Positions 3,509 to 54,982 of a DNA stretch of 62,009 nt are shown in pieces. The stretch covers positions 1-62,009 of the forward strand of contig JBFMCP010000018.1 in assembly GCA_040754455.1 (NCBI GenBank), read 5' to 3'. Source of the DNA: Nitrospirota bacterium (GTDB lineage Bacteria > Nitrospirota > Thermodesulfovibrionia > Thermodesulfovibrionales > Dissulfurispiraceae). The stretch's first letter is position 1. Every line of letters begins with the position of its first letter. Below the pieces are notes generated by a model. The model did no database searches. It saw nothing but the letters and a program-made list of their open reading frames with translations, and was not told where the DNA came from. The translations under genes and the position numbers were made by a program.

Positions 3509-3847
3509 ATGCGCATTGACCAATATTCATTCGGGAAGATCGTCATCGAACGGAAAATCTATACGAAGGATGTGATCATCCTCCCTGATCGTGTATTTTC
3601 GCCCTGGTGGAGAAAGGAAGGGCATCTGCTCCGGCTGGAAGATCTCGACGAGGTGCTCAGGGAAAAGCCCGAGGTCCTCGTCATCGGCACCGGATATTCC
3701 GGCGTTATGGAAGTGCCGCAGGACCTCGTCCAGGAACTCGCCATCGAGGGCATCCGGGTGGTGGTGAAAAAAACCCCTGAAGCAGTGGGTATCTTCAACA
3801 TCCTGAATATCCCGAAAAAGGCTGCTGCACTCCATCTCACCTGCTAG
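3509..3847 (+). CDS. Mth938/DUF498-like protein
   Basis: IDQYSFGKIVI...KDVIILPD..WWRKEGH...PEVLVIGTG...AAALHLTC. Confidence 0.9.
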   Translation: MRIDQYSFGKIVIERKIYTKDVIILPDRVFSPWWRKEGHLLRLEDLDEVLREKPEVLVIGTGYSGVMEVPQDLVQELAIEGIRVVVKKTPEAVGIFNILNIPKKAAALHLTC

Positions 3848-4003
3848 GAAATTTCACTGAAAATGTTGTAAAATGGTGGTTGCCTTTTGCGGAGTAATGC
3901 CTGCCCTCTTTCCCCACTCAATGTAGTGATAAGGGTGCAAATCCCCTTGGCAACACCGGCCCTTTTTCGATCGGAAGACATCACGTAACTATAGGAGTCA
4001 GTC

Positions 4004-4254
4004 ATGTCGTTAAGTATCGGCATCGTCGGCCTCCCGAATGTCGGGAAATCGTCCCTTTTTAATACACTCACCAAGGCGCAAACCGTTGCGGCGGCGAATT
4101 ACCCGTTCTGCACCATAGAGCCGAACAAAGCAGTGTTGCCGTTCCCGACAAGCGCCTCGCTCAGTAGTCCCTCGAGAGTCGGCATGCTGCGCACCGAGGC
4201 AAAGAGTACGTCGTCTGCAATGGCGATGTGATGCATTTTCTTTTCAATGTGTAG
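4004..4254 (+). pseudogene. ychF: ychF (redox-regulated ATPase) relic with a large internal deletion and frameshifts
   Basis: N-terminus [20 protein letters not shown]...[11 protein letters not shown], shifted frame VAVPDKRL, then C-terminus [24 protein letters not shown] ending at 4254. Confidence 0.9.
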
Positions 4255-4343
4255 ATGGCGTTGACAGAGGACAAGAGGCAGTGGCGGATGCATGGAGAGC
4301 GTCCGGCAGAATAAGAAGAGGGCGTCAGGTGTTATAATAGAGG

Positions 4344-4694
4344 ATGGAGAAACGAATGAAGAGCATAACCGATTGTTCCATAACCACCTATAACAGGTAC
4401 CGGCGCCTTGAGCAGCTTCAGGACCCCGAAAACCGGGAAGCGTATCTCGAAGCAGTTGCCGCCGCTGTCGAGACCGTCACTAATGCGCAGGGGCGTGCCC
4501 TTACCGCAGCCGAGATCAGGGACATTGAAGAGAATGTCAATGTCATGGATGACGGCATTTTAACCGGGGAGCTGGAGTTCGACCTTCTGGCGGAACATGT
4601 CAGGAAAGGCCTGCCGTTCACTGAGGCCGCTCTCCTGGCGCGCGAGGATGCGAGGACCATCCGCGCGGAGATGTTCGACGAGAGCCTGAACTGA
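4344..4694 (+). CDS. Hypothetical protein
   Basis: 116-aa acidic, helical ORF; no family recognised. Confidence 0.65.
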   Translation: MEKRMKSITDCSITTYNRYRRLEQLQDPENREAYLEAVAAAVETVTNAQGRALTAAEIRDIEENVNVMDDGILTGELEFDLLAEHVRKGLPFTEAALLAREDARTIRAEMFDESLN

Positions 4695-4755
4695 CAAACA
4701 GCGTTGTCATGGCAGCACGCAAAGGTGACGGCATCTGATTCCCAAGGAGGATCGT

Positions 4756-4931
4756 ATGGCGGGTAAAGAAAAACATGAACATCATCACGACCACCACGCT
4801 CCTGTCGTCTCTCAGCCGGTTGTGGATATGGAAGTGTCCCCTGCGGAGTTAAAGGCGTGTACAAGCTCTTCAGCCAGGTGAAGCACGAAGGCAAGGTCCA
4901 GCTCTTCGAATTCCTCGTAAAGGTACGCTAG
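4756..4931 (+). pseudogene. Relic of a His-rich, probably metal-binding protein (internal deletion/frameshift)
   Basis: AAGGAGG RBS; MAGKEKHEHHHDHHAPVV..., then in another frame KGVYKLFSQVKHEGKVQLFEFLVKVR*. Confidence 0.55.
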
Positions 4932-4990
4932 GTCACGCCACATTTACCCGCATATGCGGTCTCCCTGCTGTGATGCGTTTGCCCCCCTAG

Positions 4991-5018
4991 TTGACAACAC
5001 CAAAAGGCCTGATAGAAT
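4991..5018 (+). promoter_or_regulatory. Sigma70-type promoter of the cold-shock gene
   Basis: TTGACA-N16-TAGAAT with an extended TG. Confidence 0.6.
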
Positions 5019-5049
5019 TAATATATAAATCACAAAAGGAGAGGATCAG

Positions 5050-30866: not shown

Positions 30867-31133
30867 ATGAAGAAGACACGATTCACCGAAACACAGATTG
30901 TGGCGATCCTCAAAGAGGCAGACAGCAGAGTACTGGTCAAAGACATCTGTCGCAAGTACGCAATCAGCGATGCAACCTACTATAACTGGAAAGCAAAGTA
31001 TGGAGGGATGCAGGCATCTGATCTGAAGAAAATGAAAGAGCTTGAGCAGGAACTGAGCCAGATGAAGCGCATGTATGCAGATATGGCCCTTGAAAACAGG
31101 GCACTAAAAGATCTGATCGAAAAAAAGTTATAA
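30867..31133 (+). CDS. IS3-family transposase OrfA
   Basis: MKKTRFTETQIVAILKE...ISDATYYNWKAKYGGM; ends in AAAAAAAG, a -1 frameshift motif. Confidence 0.93.
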   Translation: MKKTRFTETQIVAILKEADSRVLVKDICRKYAISDATYYNWKAKYGGMQASDLKKMKELEQELSQMKRMYADMALENRALKDLIEKKL

Positions 31134-31982
31134 GGTCATCTGAGAAACGAGAGGCTGTGCAATATCTCATGGTTGAGCACCGCCTGTCAGTGCAGAGGAG
31201 TTGCACGTGCATTGGGTTATCCAGGGCGGCCTATTACAAGGGCATACAAGCTGACACTGACCGGGATGCCGAGGTTATCGCGGCAACCAATGGGAGTGTT
31301 GGAGAAGCACCCTCGATGGGGGTTTTGGAAGTGCTATATATCGCTGAGGAAAAAGCAGTACCCATGGAATCATAAGCGAGTGTATCGGGTGTATTGCCAG
31401 ATGAAGCTCAATCAGAAGCGGCGGGCAAAGCGGAAGCTGCCCACACGGCAACGACAGCCGTTGATGGTTCCGCTAAGACCAAACCATGTCTGGTCGGCTG
31501 ATTTCATGAGTGATGCGCTGTATGCAGGGAGTCGTTTCAGGACCTTTAATGTGATTGATGACTTTAACCGAGAGGTCGCAGCTATCGAGATCGACACCTC
31601 GCTTACGGCAAAGAGGCTCATCAGGGTGTTTGAGCGGCTGCAGCTGACCCGGGGGCTGCCGGATATCGTGCGGGTCGATAACGGGCCTGAGTTTTTCAGT
31701 AGCGAGGTGGTGACGTGGGCTGAATCAGTGGGGATGCAGATACAGCATATCCAGCCGGGTGAGCCCAATCAGAACGCCTATATTGAGCGGTTCAACTGGA
31801 CGTACCGCGAAGAGGTGCTCGATCTGTACTTGTTTACGAGCTTAACGGAAGTGCGGGAAGCGACGTACTGGTGGATGATCGACTACAATGAGCTGCGACC
31901 CCATGATGCTCTGGGCGATTTGACACCTGCAGAATACATGGAGCAAAATGTCGGAACCTCTACTTTGCAACTGTCTCCCTAA
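31130..31982 (+). pseudogene. IS3-family transposase OrfB (DDE) with an extra internal frameshift
   Basis: WSADF, RVDNGPEF, QNAYIERFN motifs; frame changes near 31285-31296 (EVIAATNG / VLEKHPRWG). Confidence 0.8.
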
Positions 31983-50752: not shown

Positions 50753-50780
50753 TTGACACGCTTTTTGGAGCTGATATTAT
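50753..50780 (+). promoter_or_regulatory. Sigma70-type promoter of the peptide/radical SAM operon
   Basis: TTGACA-N16-TATTAT with extended TG, about 70 nt upstream of the peptide ATG. Confidence 0.6.
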
Positions 50781-50849
50781 ATAGTCAAAACCTATGAATA
50801 ACCGATTATTTATAGGAATGTAACTACAGGAGAAGGGAGGTGAGAGCGG

Positions 50850-50972
50850 ATGAAAAAGGCGTTGAGCACCAAAGCCCTTGCAAAGGAGGCATCTTTCTGG
50901 GCCGGTCTCAAGAAAGCGGCGAAGGAGCATCCCGGTAAGGTATGCCACAAGTGAAAGGGTTGAAAGAGCTGA
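50850..50972 (+). CDS. Putative selenocysteine-containing RiPP precursor, MKKALSTKALAKEASFWAGLKKAAKEHPGKVCHK-U-KG-U-KS*
   Basis: GGGAGGTGA RBS; Cys32 followed by in-frame TGA at 50952, 50961 and 50970 (exact 3-codon period); SECIS-like hairpin immediately downstream; radical SAM/SPASM gene next. Confidence 0.8.
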
Positions 50973-50991
50973 TGTTGCCGGTCAGGCAACA
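50973..50991 (+). promoter_or_regulatory. Putative bacterial SECIS element
   Basis: TGTTGCC-GGTCA-GGCAACA: 7-bp stem with a G-starting loop, 25 and 16 nt after the first two UGAs. Confidence 0.7.
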
Positions 50992-51005
50992 AATTAAAGG
51001 CAAAA

Positions 51006-51049
51006 GGCAGATACGTTATCGTAATGGTACGTATCTGCCGTATTTTTTT
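51006..51049 (+). terminator. Intercistronic hairpin / leaky terminator between precursor and maturase
   Basis: GGCAGATACGT...ACGTATCTGCC followed by GTATTTTTTT. Confidence 0.75.
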
Positions 51050-51081
51050 ACGGAAAGAATATACGGAGACCGGTAAATCCC

Positions 51082-52128
51082 ATGTCCACAACCAATGCTT
51101 TTGATTTTTTCGTCCAGTGGCATCTTACGGAGCAATGCAATCTCGGGTGTACCCACTGCTATCAGACCGGCATCAGGCACCAAGAGCTTTCATTGCCCGA
51201 GATAGTGGAGACGCTCGCTGAAATAGAGGAGATGCTGGGTGACTGGAAAGAGTCCTATGCCATCGATCTTTCACCGAGCATTAATGTCACCGGCGGAGAG
51301 CCCTTCCTGCGCAGCGACTTTTTCGATATTCTCAAAGCCATGGGCGCGCGGGGGTTTGCGCTCTATGTCCTTACGAACGGCACTCTCATTGATGATCAGA
51401 AGGCGAAAGCGCTCTCTGATCTTGGCGTAAAAGGTGTCCAGGTGAGCATCGAGGGTCCCGAGGCGATCCATGAGTCGATCCGGGGAAGAGGAAGCTTTAC
51501 CGCCTCGCTGAAAGGAATTGCCCGTCTGCTTGATGCAGGGCTGAAGGTGACCCTGAACACTACGCTCTCGTCGGTGAATGCCGCGCATTTTATGGAACTG
51601 ATCGACCTCTCCTTACGCCTGGGGGTCCACCGCCTCGGTTTTTCGCGACTCGTTCCTTCGGGAAGAGGAGAGGCCATGCTCGACACCATGCTCTCTACCG
51701 AAACGGTGAGAGGACTTTATAAGCGGATTTTCTCTCAGGATACCGGTGGCCTGGAGATCGTCACCGGCGATCCCGTTGCAGCGCAACTCACGGCTCAAGA
51801 GCAGGAGGGCAGCCACAGTTCAACTCCTTCGGGAGGATGTGCAGCAGGCATATCCGGCATCACGATCCTCCCCGATGGCACACTCATCCCGTGCAGGAGG
51901 CTTCCAGTTCCTCTCGGGAATATCAAAAAAGACTCCCTGCGCGAGATATGGGCGACTTCAGAAGTTTTGGAGGCGCTGAGGGACAGGTCGCGCTATAAGG
52001 GGAAGTGCGGCGCCTGCTCCCGCTGGGCGCAGTGCAGGGGATGCAGGGCAATCGCCTATGCCTGTTCAAAGGCGAAGGGAAGCGAAGATCTGCTCGCCGA
52101 AGACCCGCAGTGCTTTATTGGCAATTAG
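51082..52128 (+). CDS. Radical SAM/SPASM domain peptide maturase
   Basis: QWHLTEQCNLGCTHC (CxxxCxxC), TGGEP, TNG; SPASM GCAAG...PC...CGAC..WAQCRGC...DPQC. Confidence 0.93.
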   Translation: MSTTNAFDFFVQWHLTEQCNLGCTHCYQTGIRHQELSLPEIVETLAEIEEMLGDWKESYAIDLSPSINVTGGEPFLRSDFFDILKAMGARGFALYVLTNGTLIDDQKAKALSDLGVKGVQVSIEGPEAIHESIRGRGSFTASLKGIARLLDAGLKVTLNTTLSSVNAAHFMELIDLSLRLGVHRLGFSRLVPSGRGEAMLDTMLSTETVRGLYKRIFSQDTGGLEIVTGDPVAAQLTAQEQEGSHSSTPSGGCAAGISGITILPDGTLIPCRRLPVPLGNIKKDSLREIWATSEVLEALRDRSRYKGKCGACSRWAQCRGCRAIAYACSKAKGSEDLLAEDPQCFIGN

Positions 52129-52234
52129 AAAAGCAATGAGGAGCCGCTACTGTACGACTGCTTTCCCTCCTGATATACTTTTTCTAATCATTTGATCATT
52201 TCAGAGTACAAGCCAATAGAGGGAGGGAATGTTT

Positions 52235-52762
52235 ATGTCCAAATGGATGATTGATCCTGATCATTCGGTAGCGGCTTTTGCAATACGGCATATGATGATC
52301 GCGTTTGTGCGTGGTCAATTTAATAAAATTACCGGCACGATCCAGTTCGACCCCGAGGACATTACGCGCTCCTCTGTGGAGATGGAGATCGACGTCGCGA
52401 GCCTCACGAGCGGGATTAAAAAGCGTGACGAGCACTTATTGAGCGCCGATTTCTTCGAGGTGGAAAAGTACCCGAAAATTACCTTCAAAAGTATGGGCAT
52501 CGAAAAGACCGGTACGAACAGCGGCAAAGTGACCGGCGACCTGACCATTCACGGTGTCACGCGATCCGTTACCCTTGAGGTGAGCTTTTTCGGGCCGGTG
52601 AAGAGCCCCTTCGGTGAAACGAGCATGGGGTTCAGCGCAGCAACATCGCTGAACCGGGAGGGCTTCGGCATCATGTGGAACGAGCCCATGGAAAAGGGCG
52701 GGCTCATGATCGGCAGGGATGTGGAGATCACCGTCGACATAGAGGCCGATCTCGCTGAGTAG
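52235..52762 (+). CDS. YceI-family polyisoprenoid-binding protein
   Basis: WMIDPDHS...VRGQF...RDEHLLSADFF...GDLTIHGVT. Confidence 0.93.
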   Translation: MSKWMIDPDHSVAAFAIRHMMIAFVRGQFNKITGTIQFDPEDITRSSVEMEIDVASLTSGIKKRDEHLLSADFFEVEKYPKITFKSMGIEKTGTNSGKVTGDLTIHGVTRSVTLEVSFFGPVKSPFGETSMGFSAATSLNREGFGIMWNEPMEKGGLMIGRDVEITVDIEADLAE

Positions 52763-54469: not shown

Positions 54470-54982
54470 TTATTTGGTAATGACACCGCACGCGATACGG
54501 TCGCCGGAATCACCGGCAGGATCGCTCTTGTAATCATCCGATTTCGCATGGACCACAAGTGCTGAGCCGTCGGCATCAAAGAGCGAGGCCTTCCCTTCGC
54601 GGAGCGTTACCTCCCCGGCAAGGACTTCTGCCCTGGCCTTTCCATCCGAGCCGGCATAAAGGTTCGGCAAATCGCCTGCATGCATGCCGTCGGGATTCAT
54701 ATACCCATGCTTTTTGCCGGTAGGATTGAAGTGGCCGCCGGCGGTCTTAAAGGGCGGTTCGCACTTTCCTACGGCATGGATGTGAAAGCCGTGGGGACCG
54801 GGCGGCAGGTTTCTGAGTTCGGCGGTAATGAGAACGCCATGGGCGGTCTCTGTCAAGGTCGCCCGCCCGATCTCATCTCCCCTGTCGTTGTAGAATATCG
54901 CCTTTGCTGCTGGACCGGCTTCCTGGGCATACACAACCGCACCGAGCACGAGCATCATGACCATGACCAGAACATATCTCAT
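54470..54982 (-). CDS. sodC: Cu/Zn superoxide dismutase, periplasmic
   Basis: HGFHIH..GKC, AGGHFNP, HAGDLPNL, ALVVHA..DD, GDSGDRIACGVI. Confidence 0.95.
   Translation of the reverse strand: MRYVLVMVMMLVLGAVVYAQEAGPAAKAIFYNDRGDEIGRATLTETAHGVLITAELRNLPPGPHGFHIHAVGKCEPPFKTAGGHFNPTGKKHGYMNPDGMHAGDLPNLYAGSDGKARAEVLAGEVTLREGKASLFDADGSALVVHAKSDDYKSDPAGDSGDRIACGVITK

Follow-up and report, generated by a model that had tools for sequence, protein, structure and literature searches.

A putative two-gene cassette pairing a di-selenocysteine peptide with a radical SAM/SPASM enzyme in anaerobic bacteria

Introduction

Only one family of natural modified peptides bearing selenocysteine (Sec) is on record, SbtA with its radical S-adenosylmethionine (SAM) enzyme SbtM. 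SbtA, the "selenobacteriocin" (TIGR04081, SGUG motif, two Sec), is the sole Sec-bearing peptide among the 119 families in Table 1 of PMC13188914, and SbtM converts Cys or Sec into a thio(seleno)oxazole (PMC11002830 section 14). Here we describe a small gene upstream of a radical SAM/SPASM enzyme gene in a 62,009-nt stretch of DNA from a Nitrospirota bacterium (GCA_040754455.1, contig JBFMCP010000018.1, positions 1-62,009, forward strand), referred to below as the window. The small gene very likely encodes a 40-residue peptide with two Sec, U35 and U38, in a C-terminal C-x2-U-x2-U core, and the enzyme encoded next to it is presumed to be its maturase.

The pair resembles SbtA/SbtM, the "selenobiotic" system, in having a short ribosomal peptide with two UGA-encoded Sec, a Sec insertion sequence (SECIS) after the UGA and a radical SAM/SPASM neighbour (PMC11002830 section 14). 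Set apart by means of the NCBIfam models and the descriptions in PMC11002830 and PMC13188914, the two systems nevertheless differ in both genes. The window peptide is unrelated to SbtA and carries the core C-x2-U-K-x-U-K-x at its very C-terminus in place of SGUG, whereas the 348-residue enzyme covers only positions 199-515 of the SbtM profile (TIGR04082, 516 positions), lacks the ~198 N-terminal ones and scores 138.1 bits against a cut-off of 350. With C written for U, the 40-residue peptide has no match in NCBIfam at E <= 1 (June 2026 release) and none in Pfam. A sequence-only reading of the window, made before any database search, had taken the pair to be distinct from the Geobacter selenobiotic pair and had proposed the NCBIfam comparison as a check of novelty; run here, that comparison bears out the distinction.

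SCIFF with Tte1186/CteB, and PapA/PapB, likewise combine a short Cys-rich peptide with a single SPASM radical SAM enzyme. SCIFF systems are not known to have a dedicated protease or exporter, and SCIFF/PapB-type maturases carry an N-terminal RiPP (peptide that is made ribosomally and then modified post-translationally) recognition element (RRE) domain, whereas the window enzyme starts 18 residues before its CxxxCxxC motif. Passages of PMC10177961 describe ranthipeptide enzymes that accept Sec for Cys: given synthetic Sec peptides, PapB and Tte1186 form selenoethers through an Se-Fe bond at the auxiliary cluster. Sec is synthetic in those substrates, whereas in the window peptide it appears to be genetically encoded and obligatory.

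Three further groups invite comparison. SkfB, SuiB, PqqE and anSME, which act on peptides or proteins, are the nearest relatives of the enzyme by profile and fold, but their substrates lack Sec and the identity is 16-23%. SuiB reportedly abstracts hydrogen from Lys, and in the peptide family described here a Lys is invariant next to Sec. AhbD and NirJ are the top-scoring named families among the best 25 of 81 NCBIfam families matched, with alignment over the full length, yet they fall far below their cut-offs and have no partner peptide. Finally, the C-terminal "star" selenoproteins (UXX-star and KCU-star in Haft's NCBIfam naming) carry Sec a few residues from the C-terminus (PMC13188914 Table 1), and their SECIS, we infer, must lie past the stop codon. 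None of the 119 families in that table has a C-x2-U-x2-U motif or consists of small peptides encoded beside a radical SAM enzyme, and no "star" model matches the window peptide.

Results

From its ATG at 50850 the frame of the small gene runs through 31 residues and then reads TGC CAC AAG TGA AAG GGT TGA AAG AGC TGA, with the Cys32 codon TGC (50943-50945) and the three TGAs each three codons apart, just as the sequence-only reading had stated. That reading had also held that the gene is hidden from the ORF (open reading frame) track, and the table-11 list indeed contains only a 34-residue ORF (50850-50954) that ends at the first TGA. The promoter and the strong ribosome-binding site that it described are both present (Table 1), and so are the hairpin it placed directly after the third TGA and, as the next gene, a radical SAM enzyme with CxxxCxxC and SPASM parts. 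The promoter alone proves little, because a scan for sites of this type found 2 where 1.7 are expected; of 70 peptide genes, 35 have a promoter-like site (at least 10 of 12 matches) in the 160 nt upstream. The window peptide contains 11 Lys and 2 Glu and has no hydrophobic stretch, which argues that it is neither a secretion signal nor a membrane peptide, and its leader is predicted as a single helix (residues 7-26) with a predicted local distance difference test (pLDDT) of 84.7. One match to TGY-N6-TGA-AAR-N3-TGA-AAR was found in the window and none in 100 shuffles. This count is not what decides the matter, however; the deciding evidence, comparative in nature, is conservation in 70 of 80 related loci.

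For the comparison, the DNA round 80 enzyme relatives, one genome per species, was collected and joined with the window to give 81 loci; these are the best 80 of at least 595 relatives, and the sample leans to close kin. The small gene was first detected by translating 400 nt upstream of the enzyme genes in three frames, and the motif was then searched over 1 kb upstream on the same strand. In 71 of 81 loci (70 relatives and the window) it precedes the enzyme gene on the same strand, 6-674 nt away, and in two more (L006 and L022, both motif-negative) the contig ends ~130 nt upstream of the enzyme gene, in keeping with the earlier expectation that the peptide adjoins the maturase's relatives. 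A start codon could be placed in 70 of these genes, most with a GGAGG-type ribosome-binding site, but not in the 5'-truncated L056, and the predicted products measure 35-43 residues. E13, C32, positions 35 and 38 and K39 are invariant in the peptide alignment, and Ala14 and Lys36 are nearly so.

The codons at the three stop positions behave in different ways. Position 35 is TGA in 70 of 71 loci and TGC in the remaining one (L053), and position 38 is TGA in all 71, whereas the terminal stop is TAA in 31, TAG in 13 and TGA in 27, lying two, three or four codons after U38 (38, 31 and 2 cases, respectively). Since TAA, TAG and TGA interchange only at the third position, the gene appears to contain two recoded UGAs followed by an ordinary stop, and the third TGA of the window would be that stop, as the earlier 40-residue reading had it. 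The sense codons beyond the first UGA also look translated. Lys36 is encoded by AAG in 59 loci and AAA in 7, with Ser or Asn in 5; Lys39 is present in all 71 (AAG 55, AAA 16); and residue 37 is Ser through AGY codons in 25 loci and through TCN codons in 10, a change of codon family that can be accounted for only by selection at the amino-acid level. Over the four sense codons after the first UGA in 26 equal-length genes, differences amount to 0.215, 0.145 and 0.395 at codon positions 1, 2 and 3. On these codon patterns, translation continues past the first UGA and the downstream codons are under protein-level selection. The sequence-only reading had named as counting against it the outcome that homologous loci stop at the first TGA; instead, the relatives keep the K-x-TGA-K-x codons and the hairpin in frame.

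A wider search supports this picture. An exhaustive search of 1.84 billion representative proteins with the peptide profile (E <= 0.001) gave 124 database hits, each a cluster at 50% identity, of which 121 end in C-x-x, because gene callers cut the protein at a TGA. One hit (P0124) has W at all three TGA places and was evidently predicted with a genetic code in which TGA means Trp, and another (P0157) has Cys at position 35 and ends at the second recoded position. The exchange of Sec for Cys at the same position, which the sequence-only reading had suggested looking for, thus exists, but it is very rare: L053 and P0157 are the only cases, both at position 35, and no Cys was seen at position 38 among the 71 loci and 124 hits. 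Taken together, the comparison confirms, at the level of sequence, that the observation is real and far beyond chance.

The hairpin after the stop behaves like a SECIS. Across loci its loop reads GGUC/GUU, and in an alignment of 71 gene ends the stem is paired in 87.6% of cells, with compensatory switches at three pairs (GC/AU 45:19, UA/CG 51:14 and CG/UA 48:12). Stem covariation is 0.336 as against 0.194 in shuffled alignments, with 0 of 500 shuffles as high; the score collapses when the partner is slid by one to three columns, and RNAalifold recovers the same helix. In the window, the 116-nt stretch containing this hairpin and the one downstream has a folding energy of -37.1 kcal/mol (z = -4.09), which none of 200 shuffles equals. 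In the bacterial SECIS (bSECIS) model (PMC13188914 section 5) the loop has 3-9 nt with a G among its first two positions and lies 16-37 nt from the UGA, the stem has 4 bp or more, and the folding energy (dG) is -7.5 kcal/mol or lower. In 63 of 71 loci both UGAs conform to every part of this model, and so they do in the window, with 25 and 16 nt to a GGUCA loop on a 7-bp stem of -10.9 kcal/mol. Over the 71 loci the loop lies 24-33 nt from the first UGA, 15-24 nt from the second and 3-14 nt from the real stop; the stop would be spared from recoding because it is always too close. A single element outside the frame thus seems to act on both UGAs while leaving the stop alone. Comparison across loci, then, shows a gene predicted to yield a peptide with Sec at 35 and 38, made by means of a SECIS in the 3' untranslated region (3'-UTR). 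Rfam gives no match at gathering score anywhere in the window, and near the hairpins only chance-level ones (E >= 0.53).

The second, terminator-like hairpin has a different standing. It is present in the window but not conserved: where the two genes stand 60 nt or more apart (41 loci), a strict scan found one in 11, a further 30 loci have gaps below 60 nt, and the terminator was accordingly rejected as a defining part of the cassette. Intergenic spacing is ~90-280 nt in the Nitrospirota-type loci and ~25-35 nt in Dehalococcoidia, whereas the SECIS hairpin of Syntrophales loci extends into the enzyme gene at its 5' end. In one of the latter (L060:3971-4030), as in other Syntrophales, the sole in-frame enzyme start found is a GTG overlapping the second UGA, which puts the SECIS within the first codons of the enzyme; here the binding of SelB might compete with initiation at the enzyme gene.

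The enzyme gene encodes a protein with clear Radical_SAM (PF04055, 84.6 bits against a cut-off of 29.5) and SPASM (PF13186, 44.4 against 21.5) domains. In an alignment of 24 close-relative sequences, C19, C23 and C26 of the CxxxCxxC motif are invariant in all 24, as are seven Cys of the SPASM part (C253, C271, C309, C312, C318, C321 and C344), a seven-Cys motif predicted to hold two auxiliary [4Fe-4S] clusters. With seven SPASM Cys, the first auxiliary cluster usually keeps an open iron, as in CteB. Among the best 25 of the 81 NCBIfam families matched, the enzyme falls below every curated cut-off: AhbD (TIGR04545) 187.4 bits against 500, the ACGX-system radical SAM enzyme 169 against 400, NirJ2 168 against 500, the GeoRSP system radical SAM enzyme (TIGR04303) 157.3 against 400, the mycofactocin maturase 134 against 265 and PapB 75 against 340. 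Several relatives are named "AdoMet-dependent heme synthase" in JGI annotation. The AlphaFold model (pLDDT 75.9, predicted template-modelling score 0.80) is nearest to the solved folds of SkfB (E 5e-16, query TM-score (TMq) 0.65), SuiB (TMq 0.71), PqqE and anSME, with ChlB and CteB (5why, rank 36) lower, and a sequence-profile search of the PDB agrees (SkfB, 4.7e-22). The enzyme gene of one locus (L037:4001-5039) is split between two matching frames, with the junction near residue 300, which is a frameshift or an assembly error.

Peptide and enzyme also go together in their diversity. The peptide ends fall into three subtypes, C-[HRL]-K-U-K-[GSE]-U-K-S in Nitrospirota and allies, C-[FYL]-[SK]-U-K-x-U-K-x-x in Syntrophales and C-L-A-U-K-S-U-K-[GN]-K in Dehalococcoidia, and these match three enzyme clades in a quick IQ-TREE run from which L077 was left out by a length filter: Chloroflexota, with the peptide in 14 of 14 rows, Syntrophales, with 13 of 13, and a Nitrospirota/Thermodesulfobacteriota mix. 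Locus L020 carries, 1.8 kb upstream of the complete pair (3658-5041), a joint partial duplicate (1854-2595) made up of a second peptide gene, which differs by one residue, and the first 133 enzyme codons. What is expected of a precursor and its maturase, a short leader-plus-core gene kept beside the enzyme, is thus found in 71 of 81 loci. Because of the pairing, the joint duplication, the matching subtypes and the fold, the SPASM enzyme is taken as the putative maturase, and on the same comparative grounds the precursor/maturase interpretation in the sequence-only reading finds support.

Table 1. Positions of the cassette and adjoining features in the window.
Feature	Position	Strand	Remarks
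Sigma-70-like promoter	50753..50780	+	TTGACA-16 nt-TATTAT, TG extension, 11/12 matches
Shine-Dalgarno sequence AAGGGAGGTGA	50833..50843	+	6 nt before ATG
Gene for 40-residue peptide, two predicted Sec	50850..50972	+	Lys/Ala-rich helical leader, C32-H-K-U35-K-G-U38-K-S, TGA stop
First UGA, predicted to be read as Sec (U35)	50952..50954	+	TGA in 70/71 loci; 25 nt before hairpin loop
Second UGA, predicted to be read as Sec (U38)	50961..50963	+	TGA in 71/71 loci; 16 nt before hairpin loop
Probable true stop codon, here TGA	50970..50972	+	Varied stops in relatives; 7 nt to loop
SECIS-like hairpin, 3'-UTR	50973..50991	+	UGUUGCC-GGUCA-GGCAACA, 7-bp stem, dG -10.9 kcal/mol
Terminator-like hairpin and U-run	51006..51049	+	11-bp stem, 12-nt loop, between peptide and enzyme genes
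348-residue radical SAM/SPASM enzyme, presumed maturase	51082..52128	+	CxxxCxxC at residues 19-26; Pfam domains; SPASM Cys
YceI-like gene	52229..52762	+	Directly downstream, same strand; 8/81 loci

Beyond the two genes, the neighbourhood is not conserved. Clustering of 719 ORFs from the 81 loci revealed no recurring third gene except YceI (8 of 81 loci), and neither a leader protease nor an exporter was found among the clustered neighbours; the others are unrelated housekeeping genes, such as those for arginyl-tRNA synthetase, glucose-6-phosphate dehydrogenase and nucleoside diphosphate kinase. The YceI-like gene also lies downstream in L001, L005, L007, L010, L024, L037 and L046 and upstream in L051; the copy in the window apparently lacks a signal peptide. 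It is probably only loosely associated and not part of the system, and, as judged from gene order, the cassette is a self-contained two-gene pair.

Searches for earlier descriptions returned little. No description of the peptide family was found in the papers that the full-text literature search reached. In the ESM Atlas the 34-residue form reached a best score of 0.81, below the 0.9 lead level. A word-indexed protein search with the peptide as query returned only its own 34-residue ORF, and with the profile as query 11 hits, two of them named, both "hypothetical protein". The peptide with its enzyme appears to represent a second family of natural Sec-bearing modified peptides, one not described until now.

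The rest of the window offers several separate observations. A Cu/Zn superoxide dismutase gene (54470-54982) lies 2.3 kb downstream of the cassette in this presumably anaerobic Nitrospirota genome and is not kept near the cassette elsewhere. The stretch 4004-4150 codes for no more than the first 49 residues of the GTPase YchF, with 66.8 bits where the cut-off is 279, and looks like a gene remnant. An IS3-type transposase pair at 30867-31979, an HTH_Tnp_1 ORF followed by an rve integrase-core ORF, marks an insertion sequence. Between 13727 and 21967, two paralogous genes with cyclic nucleotide monophosphate (cNMP)-binding, CBS and DUF294 nucleotidyltransferase domains flank a sigma-54 activator and adjoin genes for an RNase T-like exonuclease, a DUF485 protein, a sodium:solute symporter and acetyl-CoA synthetase; the set may be a regulated acetate-uptake module.

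Discussion

Our analysis points to a two-gene cassette consisting of a di-Sec peptide and a SPASM maturase, a reading that we regard as likely as a whole. Its parts differ in strength: the codon and hairpin evidence makes a real di-Sec peptide very likely, and modification of that peptide by the neighbouring enzyme, to which pairing, duplication and fold point, is probable.

Several observations weigh against this reading. No Sec machinery is seen nearby: the 62-kb window contains no tRNA-Sec, indeed no tRNA at all, no selA, selB or selD among the 63 ORFs scanned, and no other selenoprotein gene, with 20 TGA-bridged frames listed and six of them tested against NCBIfam. Regarding these lineages, section 4 of PMC13188914 describes selC embedded in selB in some Nitrospirae, and a passage of PMC5029168 describes the largest known bacterial selenoproteome in a deltaproteobacterium. 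On the side of the enzyme, no RRE/PqqD domain was found; Pfam gives Radical_SAM, SPASM and a sub-threshold Fer4_12 only. The hairpin is imperfect in some loci, with six failing the bSECIS model on dG alone, by 0.4-0.7 kcal/mol, and two peptide genes (L012 and L017) having no proper hairpin. The motif pattern accepted only TGA or TGY at both recoded positions, which makes TAA and TAG uncountable there; the ten motif-negative loci were for this part read by eye, and an nhmmer profile was also applied. By these means no peptide copy was found near the enzyme in the fetched DNA of seven loci (L004, L008, L009, L011, L039, L050 and L051). The first five are close Nitrospirota kin on one shallow branch beside the window in the quick tree, which suggests recent movement or loss of the peptide gene. 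In another locus (L042:274-312) a decayed peptide gene stands by an intact enzyme gene, with TAA at the first position, a codon missing after the Cys and no hairpin; its reading as a C-x-U-x2-U variant was ruled out by that TAA and the absent hairpin. Finally, enzymes more distant than the best 80 of at least 595 relatives may lack a peptide gene.

Which other functions could the pair have? The most serious alternative, though in our judgement an improbable one, takes the di-Sec mini-protein as a partner of the enzyme and not its substrate, that is, as a donor of electrons or selenium or as a C-x2-U-x2-U tail for a metal or metalloid, while the enzyme acts elsewhere, for example on a tetrapyrrole. 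Heme enzymes, AhbD and NirJ2, are indeed its best NCBIfam matches, and the JGI names point the same way, but their scores lie far under the cut-offs of 500 and the nearest solved folds are peptide maturases. The missing RRE domain, protease and exporter would fit a partner as well, and Cys and Sec at i, i+3 and i+6 would share one face of a helix; several small C-terminal-Sec selenoproteins are thought to be metal-binding (PMC13188914 section 7). Against this, the tight pairing across phyla, the joint duplication in L020 and the match of subtypes with clades are typical of precursor-maturase pairs, and the Lys that follows each Sec, almost or fully without exception, points to a defined site of reaction.

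Less probable still is a selenium-sensing regulatory upstream frame, in which passage through the UGAs controls a terminator or the start of the enzyme and the peptide itself has no function. Attenuators, those of the trp type for example, are classically built with rare codons in tandem within a leader ORF, and the window does have a terminator-like hairpin between the two genes. In Syntrophales, moreover, the SECIS overlaps the 5' end of the enzyme gene, and in L060 the start found overlaps the second UGA. However, only 11 of the 41 loci with room for a terminator show one, and another 30 lack the room. The peptide is kept as a protein over three phyla (E13, C32 and K39), with synonymous and Ser AGY/TCN changes, a constraint that a sensor would not require, and the Cys three residues before the first Sec is invariant. 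Selenium sensing could be an added layer of the cassette rather than an alternative to it. The last possibility, that nothing is recoded and the locus holds a 34-residue peptide ending at the first TGA or no gene at all, with the TGA periodicity due to chance, can draw on the table-11 ORF, on the form that gene callers predict (121 of 124) and on the lack of visible Sec machinery in the window, yet it is barely credible and already contradicted by the comparative data, given five further codons conserved in frame, a second TGA in 71 of 71 loci, stop interchange at the third position only, a single TGC at the first, a hairpin that covaries and keeps its distance, and a pattern found 0 times in shuffles.

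If the reading as a di-Sec peptide with its maturase is right, the cassette could work as follows. Gene 1 would yield a 40-residue, very basic peptide with the C-terminal core C-x-x-U-K-x-U-K-x, SelB and Sec-tRNA(Sec) decoding both UGAs after recruitment by the single 3'-UTR hairpin past the stop. Gene 2 would provide a minimal radical SAM/SPASM enzyme with three predicted [4Fe-4S] clusters and no separate RRE/PqqD domain, which may grip the peptide by its conserved leader (K/R-E-A-x-F/L-W/F). A Sec selenolate or a Cys thiolate could then bind the open iron of the first auxiliary cluster, and the 5'-deoxyadenosyl radical would take a hydrogen from the peptide. The outcome might be carbon-selenium cross-links in the core, selenoethers resembling those of ranthipeptides, or conversion of Sec into seleno-heterocycles as by SbtM. 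Because a Lys follows each Sec almost or fully invariably and Cys32-Lys36 and Sec35-Lys39 stand at i/i+4, Lys is a candidate acceptor, though this is speculation. As no protease or exporter goes with the pair, the product is expected to keep its leader and might work inside the cell as a redox-active or metal- or metalloid-binding selenopeptide.

How far these steps can be pressed varies. That the product is specifically a selenoether, by analogy with the ranthipeptide enzymes, is a tentative proposal that we would not bet on. The selenoether-crosslinked or metal-binding product raised in the sequence-only reading is conjecture. Somewhat more doubtful yet, and unlikely to hold in all its parts, is the full conjecture: that this is the first natural, obligatory di-Sec peptide to be made selenoether-bridged or seleno-heterocyclic by an RRE-less SPASM enzyme, that it serves with its leader attached as a housekeeping selenium redox or metal/metalloid cofactor in Nitrospirota, Thermodesulfobacteriota and Dehalococcoidia, and that one 3'-UTR SECIS handles two UGAs nine nt apart while a third stop lies seven nt from the loop.

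At the strength given here, the finding has several consequences. Selenoether formation by radical SAM enzymes has so far been shown only with synthetic substrates, and a pair of 40 and 348 residues would offer a compact test bed for native selenolate chemistry. Because Sec is almost never swapped for Cys, selenium itself seems to be needed. The locus would also be a natural case of one SECIS outside the frame that serves two UGAs and spares a third. Very short genes recoded at their C-terminal end, such as this one, escape both gene callers and selenoprotein catalogues. The new family is widespread, with 124 clusters at 50% identity in three phyla of anaerobic bacteria. Its carriers are uncultured or hard-to-grow anaerobes of groundwater and sediments, and if the peptide does have a redox or metalloid role, it would bear on the ecology of these organisms.

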